Sequence record: MN895436.1
Source: Escherichia phage teqsoen
Reading direction: 5' to 3' (one strand)
Length of the DNA: 64,000 nucleotides
The notes under the pieces: model-generated
What the model was told of the DNA's origin: nothing
Database searches by the model: none
The model's input: only the letters and a program-made list of their open reading frames with translations
In this document: piece by piece, positions 47,210 through 57,903 of the stretch
Layout of the letters: each line of letters begins with the position of its first letter
Numbering within the stretch: the stretch's first letter is position 1
Translations under genes and position numbers: made by a program

Positions 47210-47683
47210 TTATTTGAACGATTTAACGTACTGAATAGAACCTTTACTATTTACAAAGGCAATTTTACCATTTTTATTATACATGGTAGCAGTACGTTGA
47301 TAACCATAAGTTTGTTTACCAGATTGATAACCAACTAATGCGAAATTATCTTCGCCCATTTTATTCTGTTTAGCGCGAATGCGTTCATGACCATGTGCCA
47401 TAAGAACCTTAGCATCACCGGTTGCAATGGATCGACGAGTTTTTTCATCTTCAACTGTATTAACAAAGTCGTCAAATGAATCAAATTTAGCATGAGATTT
47501 ATTATACAGTTTTCCATCTACTGCATAATTATATCCCTGTACATCCATCTCAACTTCTGTACCATCATCCAATACAGCAGTGATTTTTTGACCTTTTTTA
47601 AATTTCAAAAGATCAGTAAAAGATTCAGCAATAATTTGAGAATTAATAGCTGCTTCAGTGATAAATTCTTGATATGTTTTCAT
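47210..47683 (-). CDS. internal protein with capsid targeting sequence
   Basis: 157 aa; N-terminus MKTYQEFITEA. Confidence 0.7.
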   Translation of the reverse strand: MKTYQEFITEAAINSQIIAESFTDLLKFKKGQKITAVLDDGTEVEMDVQGYNYAVDGKLYNKSHAKFDSFDDFVNTVEDEKTRRSIATGDAKVLMAHGHERIRAKQNKMGEDNFALVGYQSGKQTYGYQRTATMYNKNGKIAFVNSKGSIQYVKSFK

Positions 47684-47699
47684 ATGATTCCTTTAATTT

Positions 47700-48017
47700 T
47701 TATTCTTTAGGAAAATTTTTAGAATATGCGTCGTAAAGCTTATTTCCAATACGACGAAAAACTCTAGCTGCAAAACGATTTTCTGGGTTTTTAATCATAA
47801 TTTGCATCATATAAGTACCCGCGTCTGAAAGAGCTTCTTCATAGTACCCGTTAATTTCTTTAAGAGTCCTACGTTTACCACCAGGACCATCAACAGTGAT
47901 TTTCCATTTACCTGTAGAAGTGCGACTCGGCGGCTCAACTTGTTCAATCCAAATATAACCGCCTTCTACACGTTGTCCTGCAGCAGATTCTGCAATAAAT
48001 TCTTGATATGTTTTCAT
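47700..48017 (-). CDS. internal protein with capsid targeting sequence
   Basis: 105 aa; N-terminus MKTYQEFIAES. Confidence 0.7.
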   Translation of the reverse strand: MKTYQEFIAESAAGQRVEGGYIWIEQVEPPSRTSTGKWKITVDGPGGKRRTLKEINGYYEEALSDAGTYMMQIMIKNPENRFAARVFRRIGNKLYDAYSKNFPKE

Positions 48018-52878: not shown

Positions 52879-52908
52879 ATAGTACCATGGAAGAACAGGG
52901 ATGTAAAC
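52879..52908 (-). promoter_or_regulatory. early promoter cassette
   Basis: GTTTAC, 18 nt, TGgTACTAT; about 65 bp near-identical to 10435-10500. Confidence 0.7.
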
Positions 52909-53943: not shown

Positions 53944-54019
53944 TGGTCGAGGCAGTAGGGATCGAACCTACGACCCAGGACTTAGAAGGTCCTTGCTCTT
54001 CCTTCTGAGCTATGCCTCG
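53944..54019 (-). tRNA. tRNA-Arg: tRNA-Arg (anticodon UCU)
   Basis: hand-folded cloverleaf, 76 nt, acceptor CGAGGCA/TGCCTCG, CCA encoded. Confidence 0.85.
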
Positions 54020-54023
54020 TATT

Positions 54024-54098
54024 TGGCGGACGTGATAGGATTCGAACCTATAACCAATCGCTTAACAGGCGATCGCTCTGCCATTGAGCTACACATCC
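54024..54098 (-). tRNA. tRNA-Asn: tRNA-Asn (anticodon GUU)
   Basis: hand-folded cloverleaf, 75 nt, anticodon loop CUGUUAA, T-loop TTCGAAT, CCA encoded. Confidence 0.75.
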
Positions 54099-54102
54099 AA
54101 AT

Positions 54103-54189
54103 TGGTGGGGAGTGGTGGAGTCGAACCACCCGAGTCGCAATGACAATGAATTTACAGTCCACACCGCTACCTCTACGGGATAACTCCCC
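54103..54189 (-). tRNA. tRNA-Tyr: tRNA-Tyr-like (anticodon GUA), class II
   Basis: 87 nt; perfect acceptor GGGGAGT/ACTCCCC, T-arm, variable-arm hairpin, loop CUGUAAA, CCA encoded; D-arm pairing imperfect. Confidence 0.6.
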
Positions 54190-54201
54190 TAATTCATAAT
54201 T

Positions 54202-54276
54202 TGGTGGCCCTGGGTGGAATTGAACCACCATCTGGCGATTATGAGTCGCTTGCTTGAACCTTCCAGCTACAGGGCC
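54202..54276 (-). tRNA. tRNA-Ile: tRNA-Ile (anticodon CAU, Ile by analogy with T4; could be Met)
   Basis: 75 nt cloverleaf, acceptor GGCCCTG/CAGGGCC, CCA encoded. Confidence 0.75.
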
Positions 54277-54277
54277 T

Positions 54278-54353
54278 TGGTGCTGATTGACGGAATCGAA
54301 CCGCCGACGTCCTCATTACAAGTGAGGTGCTCTACCTACTGAGCTAAATCAGC
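54278..54353 (-). tRNA. tRNA-Thr: tRNA-Thr (anticodon UGU)
   Basis: 76 nt cloverleaf, acceptor GCTGATT/AATCAGC, CCA encoded. Confidence 0.9.
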
Positions 54354-54359
54354 AAAAAC

Positions 54360-54449
54360 TGGCGGAGGCGATAGGATTTGAACCTATGAGTCGCCGGAGC
54401 GACTGCCGGTTTTCAAGACCGGTGCATTAAACCACTCTGCCACGCCTCC
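54360..54449 (-). tRNA. tRNA-Ser: tRNA-Ser (anticodon UGA), class II
   Basis: 90 nt with long variable arm, acceptor GGAGGCG/CGCCTCC, CCA encoded. Confidence 0.9.
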
Positions 54450-54451
54450 AG

Positions 54452-54525
54452 TCTCCATACAAGGATTTGAACCTTGGACCTCCTGATCCCAAATCAGGCG
54501 CTCTACCAAACTGAGCTACACGGAG
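54452..54525 (-). tRNA. tRNA-Pro: tRNA-Pro (anticodon UGG)
   Basis: 74 nt cloverleaf, loop UUUGGGA; acceptor stem has two G-U pairs; CCA not encoded. Confidence 0.75.
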
Positions 54526-54535
54526 TAAATTAAAT

Positions 54536-54609
<74 letters not shown>

Positions 54610-54614
54610 AAATT

Positions 54615-54701
54615 TGGTGCGAGAAGTGGGACTCGAACCCACAAGGAAATCATTCCGCAGCATTTTAAGTGCTGTGCCTTTACCAATTTGACCATTCTCG
54701 C
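54615..54701 (-). tRNA. tRNA-Leu: tRNA-Leu (anticodon UAA), class II
   Basis: 87 nt with long variable arm, acceptor GCGAGAA/TTCTCGC, CCA encoded. Confidence 0.9.
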
Positions 54702-54702
54702 G

Positions 54703-54775
54703 CTGGGAATAAAGGACTCGAACCTTTGCATCCTGGAATCAAAATCCAGTGCCTTACCAACTTGGCTAATTCCCA
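54703..54775 (-). tRNA. tRNA-Gln: tRNA-Gln (anticodon UUG)
   Basis: 73 nt; D-arm GCCAAGUUGGUAAGGCA as in bacterial tRNA-Gln; CCA not encoded. Confidence 0.85.
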
Positions 54776-55166: not shown

Positions 55167-55585
55167 CCTTCATCAACAATAGTATGAGTATGGGCATTTA
55201 CAATTTGCCACCAATCAAAGCGATTAGAACCATACATCGGTTTGTTTTCATTTTCTTTGATAATATCACGAAGTTCATCTTCAGTAGCGGCTTTCGCGAT
55301 TAAATCAGCATATCCACCACGAGGATAATAATTATCACCTGCAAAAAGTAAAAAGTTTGGTTTAATGTTATTGAACTCTTCAAGAGTAATAACTGTTCCT
55401 GATGGTAGTTGAACAATCTCTACATATTTATATCCTAATTTTTGAGCAGCATCTACTGCTTCAAGCAAAGTATCATGAGCCCATCCAATTTGACAACCTG
55501 GCTTTTCAGATGGATTAGCCTGATAATCCGCGTACACTTTATACATTCTATTCACCTTTAGAAATTTTATCCATAACGACAGCAA
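55163..55585 (-). CDS. hypothetical protein
   Basis: 140-aa ORF. Confidence 0.5.
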   Translation of the reverse strand: MLSLWIKFLKVNRMYKVYADYQANPSEKPGCQIGWAHDTLLEAVDAAQKLGYKYVEIVQLPSGTVITLEEFNNIKPNFLLFAGDNYYPRGGYADLIAKAATEDELRDIIKENENKPMYGSNRFDWWQIVNAHTHTIVDEG

Positions 55586-55733
55586 TTAAACCAATTAAAA
55601 ATGCTACTACAAGTGAAAACACATTTTCTGCTGTAGTTAATAATCCGCATATAAATCCAACAAACATTGAAAAACTAAAAGCGGAAGCAGAAATTGCAAT
55701 AGCAACATTTCGAATTAATTCACAACGTTTCAT
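55548..55733 (-). CDS. small membrane protein
   Basis: 61 aa, two hydrophobic helices; AGGAGAA RBS downstream of promoter. Confidence 0.45.
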   Translation of the reverse strand: MKRCELIRNVAIAISASAFSFSMFVGFICGLLTTAENVFSLVVAFLIGLIAVVMDKISKGE

Positions 55734-55761
55734 TTTATTCTCCTCAGTAGTTGATAGGGTA

Positions 55762-55791
55762 ATAGTATCACCACCCTATCTAAAAGTAAAC
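55762..55791 (-). promoter_or_regulatory. early promoter with -10 inside an inverted repeat
   Basis: GTTTAC, 18 nt, TACTAT; flanked by GATAGGGT/ACCCTATC. Confidence 0.6.
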
Positions 55792-56025
55792 TTATTTTTT
55801 ACGAAAAATTGATTTATTTTCTGCTGCCCATTTTTCAATAACTGCAGCAGGACCAGTAACAACAATTTTATCACCGTAATCTTCTGCGGCGAGTTGACCG
55901 AAATTATCTAATGCATCACGAAGAACTCCATGAGGCATTTCACCCATTTTATCTTTCTTGCCGGTGTAAATAAACTCAACTTTTACATCAGAAGATTCAG
56001 CGATAAACTCTTTGAAAGTTTTCAT
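55792..56025 (-). CDS. protein with capsid-targeting-like N-terminus
   Basis: 77 aa from internal ATG: MKTFKEFIAES...; track ORF starts further upstream. Confidence 0.6.
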   Translation of the reverse strand: MKTFKEFIAESSDVKVEFIYTGKKDKMGEMPHGVLRDALDNFGQLAAEDYGDKIVVTGPAAVIEKWAAENKSIFRKK

Positions 56026-56059
56026 TTTGATTTCCATTTGGTTTTGTTTTGATAGAGTA

Positions 56060-56089
56060 ATAGTATCACTACTAAAACCCTGTGTAAAC
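56060..56089 (-). promoter_or_regulatory. early promoter
   Basis: GTTTAC, 18 nt, TACTAT. Confidence 0.65.
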
Positions 56090-56101
56090 AACTTTGTGAA
56101 A

Positions 56102-56359
56102 TTATTTTAAATCTTCTAATCGTTTCTTCATCTTAGAACCATTTTTAGCAATTTCTCCTGCATCTGAGCATAATGCTAAAAGTGCTTTAACTTTAGTTTG
56201 GTCTCCTTTAAAAGATGAAGGATCGACTGCAGCAGCAAGTTCTTTAATACGAGAGAAAAGACGCTCAGCTTCAGCTAAAGCCATTCCAAGCTTTACTTCC
56301 ATACCGTGGGAAGATTCGGTGATAGTAGTTTTTGTAGCAAACTCTTTGAAAGTTTTCAT
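56102..56359 (-). CDS. protein with capsid-targeting-like N-terminus
   Basis: 85 aa; MKTFKEFATKTTITES; AGGAAAA RBS. Confidence 0.6.
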   Translation of the reverse strand: MKTFKEFATKTTITESSHGMEVKLGMALAEAERLFSRIKELAAAVDPSSFKGDQTKVKALLALCSDAGEIAKNGSKMKKRLEDLK

Positions 56360-56389
56360 TTTATTTTCCTAATTAATTTTGATGAGATA

Positions 56390-56419
56390 ATAGTATCACT
56401 ACCTCATCAGCGTGTAAAC
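56390..56419 (-). promoter_or_regulatory. early promoter with -10 inside an inverted repeat
   Basis: GTTTAC, 18 nt, TACTAT; flanked by GATGAG/CTCATC; upstream element identical to the 56091-56113 copy. Confidence 0.65.
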
Positions 56420-56431
56420 AACTTTGTGAAA

Positions 56432-57128
<697 letters not shown>

Positions 57129-57129
<1 letters not shown>

Positions 57130-57854
57130 TATAGTACCTTTAGTGTATTTTTAATTTTAGAAAAAAGTTCTTCAAGAGAACCATCGTTTGTAATTACTAA
57201 ATCGCCATCACGAATTGGCAATCCAGCTTCTGTAATATGTGTATCATTGGATTTTTGACCAGGACGAACTACATGAATTACTGTAGCACCCATCGCCCTA
57301 GCCGCATCCATTTCATGATCTTGACGAGTATCAGGAACGATATAATAATCATAACCTGAGTTAAATTTATCAAGATAATCTAAAGCAAATAATTTTACCC
57401 AGTACATGCGGTCGAAGTTATTAACAATCAAATCCGTACCTAGGGCTTGCATCAGACGACGGACTGACCATTGATCTTCAATATTATTTATAACGTCAAT
57501 AATCTTGTTAAATGCTACGGAATTAACTGATTCTTGTCCTTCGTCATCAAAAACAAACACACCCTTAATTGGGCTTTTACCGTTAAGATAGCAAAATGCT
57601 TGTTCCATAATCGTGATTACTTCTGATTTAGTCAGATTTAAATTAGTCTCACGATCATAGTCAATTCCTTCAAACTCTTTACGAGTTAAGCAAGGATAGT
57701 CAGTGTTTTCTGCAAATACGCCCCATGCATAAGCCAATGCATCCTTAATAGGACCAGCAAGTTGGTATTTAACTGCAGAATAATTGCTCATGATAAAATC
57801 AGCAGTAGTATCTTTTCCACTACGCTTTACACCGCTTAAAAAGATTAGTTTCAT
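57129..57854 (-). CDS. 1: dNMP kinase (gene 1)
   Basis: 241 aa from MKLIFLSGVKRSGKDT (P-loop); track GTG start 57893 is upstream. Confidence 0.9.
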
Positions 57855-57903
57855 GTGTTTCTCCTCAAATTTAATTAAGATTATAACACACAAAACTGAA
57901 GCA

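Follow-up and report, generated by a model that had tools for sequence, protein, structure and literature searches.

Gene content and position of the locus

The stretch of Escherichia phage teqsoen DNA analyzed here (64,000 nucleotides of MN895436.1, hereafter the window) very probably includes the hypervariable ipI locus known classically from T-even phages, occupied by two internal-protein cassettes, ip5 and ip6; we put the probability of this reading at roughly 85%. The window is Tequatrovirus DNA with 98.6% identity to phage GiZh across the locus, and the genes concerned are as follows.

56432 to 56887, minus strand: 57B, Acb1 anti-CBASS family (Pfam PF23474 Acb1, E 2.6e-60); gp57B in GiZh and PST
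56102 to 56359, minus strand: ip5 (IpV), 85 aa; ipV in GiZh and PST
55792 to 56025, minus strand: ip6 (IpVI), 77 aa; ipVI in GiZh and PST
55548 to 55733, minus strand: trna.4 homologue, a 61-aa predicted membrane protein (PHROG 1692); tRNA.4 in GiZh and PST

A sequence-only reading of this DNA had placed two small CTS-bearing ORFs where T4 has ipI, between the tRNA cluster and 57B. Both ORFs are present on the minus strand, with the N termini MKTFKEFIAE|S (ip6) and MKTFKEFATKTTITE|S (ip5), and the gene order bears out their placement: they are flanked by 57B and the trna.4 homologue, with a cluster of 10 tRNAs downstream, which is the ipI position of T4. Together with the propeptides described below, this position supports their assignment as internal-protein genes, whose loci lie either between 57B and trna.4, as here, or beside gene e. 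The closest known system, the T4 ipI locus with the T-even internal proteins Ip1 to Ip10+ (Repoila et al. 1994, EMBO J 13:4181), has the same 57B-trna.4 position. Both ip5 and ip6 are named members of that family in T2, T6, RB70, PST, and GiZh, but T4 carries one cassette at this locus whereas the window carries two.

The 57B gene is the conserved left anchor of this variable locus and the trna.4 homologue is its conserved right anchor; across 36 related loci, the interval between them holds from 0 to about 5 CTS-type ORFs. Relatives were better collected by locating loci via 57B than by a pattern scan of IMG/VR with the exact promoter core, which returned only 17 stretches. GenBank records of T4 annotate no regulatory features at the ipI locus, and an Rfam scan of 55400 to 56700 gave only a chance snoRNA match (E 0.54, far under the gathering score).

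Identity of Ip5 and Ip6

Full-length identity places the two ORFs in the Ip5 and Ip6 orthologue groups. Ip5 is 92 to 99% identical to T2 and RB70 proteins that UniRef names "Ip5 internal head protein" and matches PHROG 3499 ("internal head protein", 1.2e-49), and Ip6 is 73 to 95% identical to proteins named Ip6 or internal (core) protein and matches PHROG 8111 ("internal virion protein", 3.3e-51). Rules for the CTS, MKT(Y/F)(Q/K)EF, and for gp21 cleavage at (L/I)-x-E within residues ~8 to 19 have been published (PMC9026906); both proteins begin with MKTFKEF and carry the gp21 motif, as I-T-E(15)|S in Ip5 and I-A-E(10)|S in Ip6. Predicted cleavage after I-T-E would remove the Ip5 propeptide MKTFKEFATKTTITE and leave a mature protein of 70 aa (pI 9.2), and cleavage after I-A-E would remove the Ip6 propeptide MKTFKEFIAE and leave 67 aa (pI 6.5). 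The Ip5 site is backed by a homologue with a 10-residue propeptide, MQTYQTFITE|SSHG. The MKTFKEF start and the I-x-E motif are common to T4 ipI and to both proteins, and similarity among Ip5, Ip6, and T4 IPI is limited to the propeptide, the mature domains of Ip5 and Ip6 being unrelated to IPI.

The model of Ip5 is a two-helix hairpin (pLDDT 71), a fold too generic to be informative, and that of Ip6 is a small alpha/beta fold (pLDDT 80.8). A Foldseek search with the Ip6 model found no PDB match at E <= 0.001, returning only generic small alpha/beta folds, and IPI* was absent among the 50 matches listed. A PDB sequence search with both proteins gave nothing under E 0.7, no Pfam family was matched by either, and a literature search on Ip5/Ip6 function or virion proteomics found nothing.

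Early promoters and the timing of expression

The pattern GTTTAC-N18-TAYWAT has 17 matches in the window, all on the minus strand, against 0.12 expected. Those at the locus are the following.

56390 to 56419, minus strand: ip5 early promoter, with -35 GTTTAC at 56419-56414, TGn, and -10 TACTAT at 56395-56390; near-identical to the T4 ipI promoter
56060 to 56089, minus strand: ip6 early promoter, with -35 at 56089-56084 and -10 at 56065-56060
55762 to 55791, minus strand: early promoter of the trna.4 homologue, with -35 at 55791-55786 and -10 at 55767-55762

Promoters of the form GTTTAC/TACTAT had been proposed ahead of both ORFs, and both are present as GTTTAC-N18-TACTAT. The -35 of the trna.4-homologue promoter abuts the ip6 stop codon TAA. 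All three promoters are also annotated in phage fPS-65, the ip5 one as "predicted early promoter". They have the anatomy of T4 early promoters (PMC2988021; consensus features also in PMC4122927), with an A/T-rich UP region, -35 GTTTAC, TGn, and -10 TAnnAT at the appropriate spacing on the coding strand.

The sequence-only reading had called early promoters on CTS proteins unexpected, but T4 itself argues otherwise. The T4 ipI promoter and leader are near-identical to those of ip5, and the same promoter/hairpin element stands ahead of both ipI and trna.4 in T4. Because T4 multi-omics assigns ipI, ipII, and ipIII to an "early-RNA_late-Protein" class (PMC9697503, supplementary file 6), early promoters on CTS genes are not unexpected. 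Early-promoter/stem-loop elements at T-even IP loci are, moreover, credited to Repoila et al. 1994 in the accounts of Arbiol et al. 2010 (PMC2839356) and Comeau et al. 2014.

A late promoter is absent immediately ahead of the ip genes; going upstream along the coding strand, the first TATAAATA is met at 57485-57492, within gene 1. If T4 biology is a guide, host RNA polymerase would transcribe ip5 and ip6 straight after infection, and late supply may come partly by read-through, for example from this late-promoter-like sequence in gene 1. The proteins would then accumulate, reach the prohead core via the CTS, lose their propeptides to the gp21 protease, which would cut after the Glu of I-x-E, and be injected with the DNA at the next infection. 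Once injected, they would probably neutralize a host defense, by analogy to T4 Ip1-3 acting against GmrSD-type restriction enzymes. Ip1-3 are GmrSD inhibitors (PMC12373910), with IPI, Ip2, and Ip3 each inhibiting specific GmrSD enzymes.

We infer packaging of Ip5 and Ip6 from CTS homology. It could be argued instead that they are ordinary early cytoplasmic proteins that stay unpackaged and whose CTS-like N terminus is vestigial, given that only early promoters lie directly upstream and that mature Ip6 (pI 6.5) is not basic, unlike the classical internal proteins. We regard this as very improbable: the CTS and the I-x-E motif are kept in all homologues while the mature parts vary, and T4 IPI, with the same promoter arrangement, is packaged at ~360 copies (PMC9026906).

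Hairpins over the -10 regions

Each of the three promoters belongs to a promoter/hairpin element of one repeat family (55751-55791, 56049-56089, and 56379-56419; family D1). The hairpins themselves are listed here with the energies of their RNA folds.

56380 to 56409, minus strand: ip5 promoter hairpin, overlapping the -10; 13 pairs with an AUAC loop; -14.8 kcal/mol, z -3.18, 0/200 shuffles as good
56054 to 56081, minus strand: ip6 promoter hairpin, weaker and interrupted, overlapping the -10; -13.2 kcal/mol, z -2.81, 3/200 shuffles
55753 to 55780, minus strand: hairpin over the -10 of the trna.4 promoter, GATAGGGT/ACCCTATC; 12 pairs; -16.0 kcal/mol, z -3.65, 0/200 shuffles

The inverted repeats first noticed at 55753-55780 and 56381-56408 are thus real, forming stable RNA folds that no shuffle equaled. 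They had been described as two elements, one enclosing the -10 of each ORF's promoter, which is correct for ip5, but the elements number three. The repeat GATAGGGT/ACCCTATC had been wrongly assigned to the ORF at 55792-56025: it is found past the stop codon of this ORF, ahead of the trna.4 homologue, and ip6 has a weak, interrupted hairpin over its own -10. Among the window's strict early-promoter matches, a strong hairpin enclosing the -10 is confined to the three elements of the locus. The stems are GAUGAGG/CCUCAUC-like and AT-rich, with G·U making up 3 of the 12 to 13 pairs.

Occlusion of the ip5 ribosome-binding site by the hairpin was considered and rejected (P unpaired 0.93 vs 0.92), and the effect on the ip6 site is weak (0.52 vs 0.82).

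Conservation of the hairpin despite divergent arms

In 37 distinct IP-locus elements from relatives, the hairpin persists while its arms differ: they represent at least seven sequence types in no fewer than three registers, and pairing is kept. Differing arms remain paired (e.g., GAGGGCTATG/TATAGCCCT and GAGGGTTATG/TATAACCCT), and compensatory C-G to T-A changes are seen. Because the hairpin persists while the arm sequences differ, we favor a structural role, probably at the level of RNA, over a sequence-specific operator. The latter had been suggested by the sequence-only reading, and would have a phage or host DNA-binding protein switching the early promoters at these sites. The repeats are indeed palindromic, overlap the -10, and sit at a constant position at all three promoters, and AsiA does not fully account for the early shut-off of T4 promoters (PMC2988021). 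A conserved palindromic recognition sequence common to the regulated promoters is, however, not found: the arms vary from one element to another and from phage to phage, what stays invariant, GTGATACTATTA, is simply the TGn/-10 of the promoter, and the window's other early-promoter matches have no such repeat. Sense folds are also significantly more stable than antisense folds (p = 0.004, 37 elements) owing to the G·U pairs, which form in sense RNA only. On this evidence, an operator is very improbable.

A second alternative is that the inverted repeats are functionless, arising from promoter constraints or as a by-product of repeated template switching or recombination within the promoter core. 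The promoter dictates the bases of the five innermost pairs (GTG...TAT), and naturally occurring chimeras remain viable with shortened stems. The right arm (CCCTATC/CCTCATC) is fairly conserved and overlaps TATCAAC, a motif often present on the downstream side of the window's other early promoters as well; consequently, part of the pairing could reflect promoter constraints. Covariation counted in a single register is also weak, at 67.6% paired across the 37 elements against 65.9% in shuffles, 25 of 500 of which were as high. Since the hairpins use at least three registers, we replaced this count with an energy comparison against other early promoters. The median MFE is -12.6 kcal/mol for the 37 IP-locus elements against -3.4 kcal/mol for 17 other early promoters, which share the -10 and the downstream motif yet do not fold (Mann-Whitney p = 6e-6). 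Together with the continued pairing of unrelated outer arms and the compensatory changes noted above, this makes a by-product origin unlikely.

Possible roles of the hairpin

The hairpins may act as terminators or attenuators that insulate the cassettes, each gene being expressed essentially from its own early promoter only. In keeping with this, the stems lie 11 to 23 nt past the upstream gene's stop codon, the stem-loop of an RB49 PeSL cut lacZ expression like a strong terminator (PMC2839356), and Comeau et al. 2014 call the PST and T4 elements promoter-terminator motifs. No U-run follows any of the three stems, however, where the tails are CAAAAUUAAUUA, CAAAACAAAACC, and CAACUACUGAGG, and a terminator scan made no call at any of the three hairpins. 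The stems are AT-rich with G·U pairs, and Arbiol et al. 2010 describe IP-locus elements as weaker analogues of PeSLs. Full termination would further leave the ip genes without a late transcript, as there is no TATAAATA between 57B and trna.4. The published terminator role is therefore not supported by the sequence at the ip5/ip6 locus, and we hold insulation by these hairpins to be a possibility of perhaps modest weight, short of likely.

RNAs started at the embedded promoter lack the 5' arm. The hairpin most likely works at the RNA level, in transcripts that come in from upstream, either as an attenuator or as a protector of 3' ends after processing. A more specific and rather doubtful proposal is that it is a sense-selected RNA element that tells upstream read-through transcripts (middle/late) from those of the embedded early promoter. 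For the ip genes, it would be a point of RNA processing or of 3' stabilization, or else a weak attenuator, giving each cassette a separate RNA fate. Some relatives have an additional outer stem, by which the Shine-Dalgarno of the trna.4 homologue is occluded, but only in read-through RNA.

If true, this "early-promoter-in-hairpin" arrangement would parallel the translational switch of T4 e, soc, 49, and I-TevI, in which a late promoter sits in the hairpin. In those genes the promoter reportedly lies inside a hairpin and only transcripts started there are translatable, findings said to go back to McPheeters in 1986, Macdonald in 1984, Barth in 1988, and Gott in 1988. The likeness lies in a promoter embedded in a hairpin, with promoter-proximal and read-through RNA differing in structure. 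The embedded promoter is late there but early in the window, and the ip5 ribosome-binding site is left unoccluded by its hairpin, as seen above.

Direct repeats and proposed cassette exchange

Two kinds of repeated segment accompany the promoter/hairpin elements.

56412 to 56443, minus strand: copy 1 of a 32-nt exact direct repeat, GATTTAAAATAATTTCACAAAGTTGTTTACAC, covering the 57B terminus (D-L-K-stop) together with the A/T-rich UP region and -35 belonging to the ip5 promoter
56082 to 56113, minus strand: copy 2, covering D-L-K-stop of ip5, the UP region, and the -35 of the ip6 promoter
56339 to 56369, minus strand: 31-nt segment of ip5 with the ribosome-binding region and first seven codons (RBS/CTS start; family D3)
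56005 to 56035, minus strand: corresponding 31-nt RBS/CTS-start segment of ip6, matching that of ip5 at 94% (family D3)

The ~25-bp stretch said to be shared by the two upstream elements is real and corresponds to the 32-nt exact repeat, but it is more than an upstream element, since it also holds the last three codons and stop of 57B or ip5. The 31-nt RBS/CTS segment is a second homology patch between the two cassettes.

Breakpoints in comparisons with T4 and with the ip6-only phage L052 fall inside the repeated elements. Homology to T4 ends at 56325 and restarts at 55771 within the promoter core, from which point onward the trna.4 promoter element is 98% identical to T4. By BLAST, window positions 56107..56049 match the T4 trna.4 upstream region at 91.5%, and the left half of the ip6 hairpin element is homologous to the T4 trna.4 promoter element. 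Relative to L052, the window has one additional 330-bp unit (ip5) bounded by the 32-nt exact repeats, and natural chimeric elements occur in the relatives L044 and L037.

These breakpoints and the 330-bp ip5 unit fit the published PeSL-like model of cassette shuffling. Each cassette is self-contained and consists of a strong T4 early promoter with its -10 in a hairpin, a short unstructured leader, a conserved CTS start MKTFKEF...(I)xE, an unrelated mature domain, and a conserved 3' flank already carrying the UP region and -35 of the next promoter. The promoter/hairpin and CTS repeats may serve as short homology patches for the phage recombination system, and recombination at them would insert, delete, or swap cassettes.

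Relation to known systems and significance

PeSLs (promoter-early stem-loop) are mobile regulatory cassettes of T4-type phages (Arbiol et al. 2010, PMC2839356; Comeau et al. 2014). The window shares with them strong early promoters with stable intergenic stem-loops beside variable small ORFs of a region that is hyperplastic, breakpoints of indels and replacements within the elements, and a stem overlapping the -10, which is a described sub-class. PeSL stems, however, are G/C-rich (polyG...polyC), whereas those of the window are AT-rich with G·U pairs and no U-run, and PeSL promoters approach a near-perfect sigma-70 consensus, whereas those of the window are of the T4 type GTTTAC/TAYWAT. Arbiol et al. 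2010 (PMC2839356) term the IP-locus elements analogues, not homologues, of PeSLs, and terminator activity and mini-circle formation are described for PeSLs.

The architecture of the ip5/ip6 cassettes is already known, having been reported for T-even phages in 1994 (Repoila et al., as credited in later work) and generalized as PeSLs in 2010 and 2014, and the early report makes it an ordinary one. The locus illustrates how T-even phages shuffle injected anti-defense proteins as ready-made cassettes, each equipped with a promoter and a packaging signal and flanked by short repeats open to use by phage recombination. Such shuffling is of relevance to host-range evolution and to the engineering of protein-delivering phages. 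With 57B encoding an Acb1 (anti-CBASS) protein alongside, this short stretch looks like a counter-defense islet.

Two internal protein genes at the ipI position

Two ORFs lie between 57B and the homologue of T4 trna.4, and all of the genes around them are on the minus strand:

57129-57893, minus: dNMP kinase (gene 1)
56887-57129, minus: 57A
56432-56887, minus: 57B
56102-56359, minus: 85-aa ORF (ip5)
55792-56025, minus: 77-aa ORF (ip6)
55548-55733, minus: 61-aa membrane ORF (trna.4 homologue)
downstream of the 61-aa membrane ORF, minus: two further small ORFs
53944-54775, minus: ten tRNA genes (Arg, Asn, Tyr, Met/Ile-CAU, Thr, Ser, Pro, Gly, Leu, Gln)

Gene order is identical in T4, where the single gene ipI stands between 57B and trna.4, so both ORFs are real and sit at the T4 ipI position, as a sequence-only reading had placed them. 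The locus is 98.6% identical to that of phage GiZh and 97-98% identical to those of T6 and PST; 780 phage records match it in total, and at least 158 share its two-cassette arrangement. The tRNA cluster lacks the homing endonuclease gene segB, which in T4 accompanies eight tRNA genes; T6 has an endonuclease gene and seven tRNA genes listed within the fetched region.

The ORFs are annotated ipV and ipVI in GiZh and PST. In a large protein database, the 85-aa product is 92-99% identical to the "Ip5 internal head protein" of T2 and RB70 and the 77-aa product is 73-95% identical to "Ip6 putative internal head protein" or "internal (core) protein," and PHROGs assigns both to internal head/virion protein families (E = 1e-49 for Ip5 and 3e-51 for Ip6). 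Both proteins begin with MKTFKEF, and similarity among Ip5, Ip6, and T4 IPI is confined to the propeptide. Its ends, I-A-E|S in Ip6 (residue 10) and I-T-E|S in Ip5 (residue 15), conform to the T4 prohead protease and capsid targeting sequence (CTS) rule summarized in PMC9026906, and a homologue whose propeptide is shorter (MQTYQTFITE|SSHG) supports the Ip5 site. The predicted mature proteins are 70 aa (Ip5, pI 9.2) and 67 aa (Ip6, pI 6.5). The predicted Ip5 model is a two-helix hairpin; Pfam and PDB sequence searches gave no functional lead for either protein, nor did Foldseek with a fair Ip6 model (pLDDT 80.8).

In T4, Ip1, Ip2, and Ip3 are inhibitors of GmrSD-type type IV restriction enzymes, each blocking a specific one (PMC12373910; PMC3012670). 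57B, which many phage records label "RNA ligase" or "hypothetical," has a Pfam match to the anti-CBASS nuclease Acb1 (PF23474, E = 2.6e-60), so the ip cassettes lie directly downstream of another counter-defense gene. By analogy with the T4 proteins, and given this neighbor, Ip5 and Ip6 are most likely injected counter-defense proteins.

Three further ORFs in the window have CTS or CTS-like N termini:

47700-48017, minus: CTS ORF, 105 aa, MKTYQEFIAE|S
47210-47683, minus: CTS ORF, 157 aa, MKTYQEFITE|A; PHROG 3155, internal virion protein
2740-2928, minus: 62-aa ORF, MKTYKEFIKEDMVAGDSGG...KKKKRNLKKKKSKNVISTLD; CTS-like N terminus, lysine-rich tail

The first two make up a second IP locus (47210-48017, minus), which has an operon layout with no promoter/hairpin element between its ORFs. 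The 62-aa ORF lies outside both classical IP loci, directly upstream of primase gene 61 and overlapping its start; it is 95-99% conserved across some 500 Tequatrovirus records and falls in PHROG 1823, a family of unknown function.

Early promoters embedded in hairpins

Three promoter/hairpin elements, E1 to E3, occur at the locus:

56379-56419, minus: E3, precedes ip5; RNA fold -14.8 kcal/mol, z = -3.18, 0/200 shuffles as good
56049-56089, minus: E2, precedes ip6; RNA fold -13.2 kcal/mol, z = -2.81, 3/200 shuffles as good
55751-55791, minus: E1, precedes the trna.4 homologue; RNA fold -16.0 kcal/mol, z = -3.65, 0/200 shuffles as good

The E2 stem is interrupted. Each element contains GTTTAC, 14 bases, and GTGATACTATTA, a layout of -35, TGn, and -10 TACTAT at T4 early-promoter spacing; GTTTAC-N18-TAYWAT has 17 matches in the window, where 0.12 would be expected, and every one is on the minus strand. 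Judged by sequence, these are bona fide T4-type early promoters as defined for T4 (PMC2988021) and by the PST/T4 consensus TTTACW-N17-TAYWAT (PMC4122927), and the same three sites are annotated "predicted early promoter" in phage fPS-65.

The sequence-only reading had described two such elements, each placing a -10 inside an inverted repeat before its ORF, and this observation was partly confirmed. Both elements are real, but the family (D1) numbers three and the third was missed; the arrangement holds for ip5, but the repeat assigned to ip6 (55753-55780) belongs to E1 and in fact lies downstream of that gene. The shared stretch, put at about 25 bp, proves to be an exact 32-nt repeat in direct orientation (56082-56113 = 56412-56443) that takes in the -35, the UP region, and the closing D-L-K-stop of whichever gene lies upstream. 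Another conserved patch, 31 nt long and 94% identical between ip5 and ip6, spans the ribosome-binding region and the first seven codons of the CTS.

Cassette exchange

Relative to T4, colinear homology (97.6%) extends from 57A via 57B, E3, and the first ip5 codons to 56325, where it stops, and resumes at 55771 inside the E1 core (98.2%). The T4 trna.4 promoter is a mosaic whose left half matches E2 (56107-56049, 91.5%) and whose right half matches E1, which places the ip6 unit between two halves of one ancestral element. Compared with L052, the locus of an ip6-only phage, the window differs by precisely one additional unit of 330 bp, which carries ip5 and is edged by the 32-nt exact repeats. 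In 36 related loci obtained through 57B, the number of CTS-type ORFs between 57B and trna.4 ranges from zero to about five; some have their own promoter element and others are coupled directly to the upstream gene. Natural chimeric elements, whose left and right arms belong to different types, occur in related loci L044 (4802-4853 and 4469-4520) and L037 (5174-5225); a GATAGGG-type left arm with a CCTCATC-type right arm, for example, gives a shorter stem. At the sequence level, these chimeras are direct evidence that crossovers have occurred within the GTGATACTATTAC core. Together, the breakpoints, 330-bp unit, chimeras, and variable ORF number match the published model in which promoter/stem-loop elements are linkers in modular shuffling (PMC2839356, PMC4122927); according to the same papers, such elements had already been seen at the two IP loci by Repoila et al. 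(1994).

Probable selection on hairpin pairing

Of the window promoters that match the strict early consensus, a strong hairpin taking in the -10 is present at the three locus promoters only. The 36 loci, T4, and the window together yielded 37 different promoter elements from the 57B-trna.4 interval, most of which fold well despite differing arms, in at least three registers. Arm pairs include GATGAGG/CCTCATC, GATAGGG/CCCTATC, and GAGGGCTATG/TATAGCCCT with its compensated variant GAGGGTTATG/TATAACCCT, as well as AGGTCTATAG/CTATAGACCT and GATGATGG/CCATCATC-like pairs. Median MFE was -12.6 kcal/mol for the 37 elements versus -3.4 for 17 other window early promoters (Mann-Whitney p = 6e-6). Sense strands give more stable folds than antisense strands, a difference due to G·U pairs (medians of -12.6 and -10.5; Wilcoxon p = 0.004). 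A strict single-register pair count was marginal (67.6% paired versus 65.9% in shuffles; 25/500), owing partly to the differing registers and partly to a fairly conserved right arm. The pairing is probably selected, probably acting in RNA, and the statistical case is moderate. Several window early promoters (GTTTAC beginning at 52908, 36870, 35431, and 10480, minus strand) share an extended downstream consensus, GGTACTATA(C/T)(A/C)A(C/T)TATCAACT..., whose TATCAAC also closes the right hairpin arm at IP-locus promoters. The hairpin may be under constraint from a conserved initial transcribed sequence.

Role of the hairpin and timing of expression

The proposal that the inverted repeats are operator-like was not borne out, since arm sequences vary among relatives, which argues against a sequence-specific operator. 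Termination was another candidate: stem-loops of RB49 PeSLs (promoter-early stem-loop cassettes) terminated transcription in a reporter, and in the account of Arbiol et al. the T-even IP-locus elements are analogues of PeSLs that are weaker and AT-rich (PMC2839356). No U-run follows the stem at E1, E2, or E3 and a terminator scan reported nothing there, so we rejected all three as canonical intrinsic terminators.

Transcripts from the embedded promoters start inside the 3' arm and therefore lack the hairpin, which would form only in RNA arriving from upstream. Occlusion of the ip5 ribosome-binding site was rejected (P unpaired of 0.93 in read-through versus 0.92 in promoter-started RNA), and the effect at ip6 was weak (0.52 versus 0.82). 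In four related loci, an outer stem extends the promoter hairpin upstream of the trna.4 homologue:

L044, 5178-5260
L037, 5569-5650
L050, 6323-6400
L054, 6270-6350

Here the promoter spacer (UUUCCUUG or CUCCUUU) pairs with the Shine-Dalgarno (SD) sequence of the trna.4 homologue (CAAGGAG or AAAGGAG), whose predicted P(unpaired) is 0.11-0.21 in read-through versus 0.60-0.86 in early-promoter-started RNA. The T4 late genes e, soc, and 49 are known for this logic of SD occlusion in read-through RNA, but their embedded promoter is late and that of the relatives is early.

Early promoters on packaged proteins had also been considered unexpected. However, T4 ipI has the same promoter as the window ip genes, and ipI, ipII, and ipIII are classed as "early-RNA_late-Protein" in a time-resolved T4 transcriptome/proteome (PMC9697503, supplementary file 6), so in T4 this surprise has already been explained. 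Between 57B and trna.4, no late-promoter motif was found. The nearest upstream late-promoter-like TATAAATA on the coding strand (57485-57492, minus) lies inside gene 1, upstream of 57A-57B-ip5-ip6, and is no more than a candidate origin of late read-through, because TATAAATA occurs in the window at chance frequency (11 found versus 10.3 expected).

The interpretation offered from sequence is thus partly supported: CTS genes do have early promoters inside repeats, but these are neither unexpected nor operator-like. Both ip5 and ip6, as well as PeSL-like IP-locus elements, were already known; what is added, on a small and modest scale, is the hairpin's sense-strand bias, explicit breakpoints, and an SD-occluding outer stem in some relatives.
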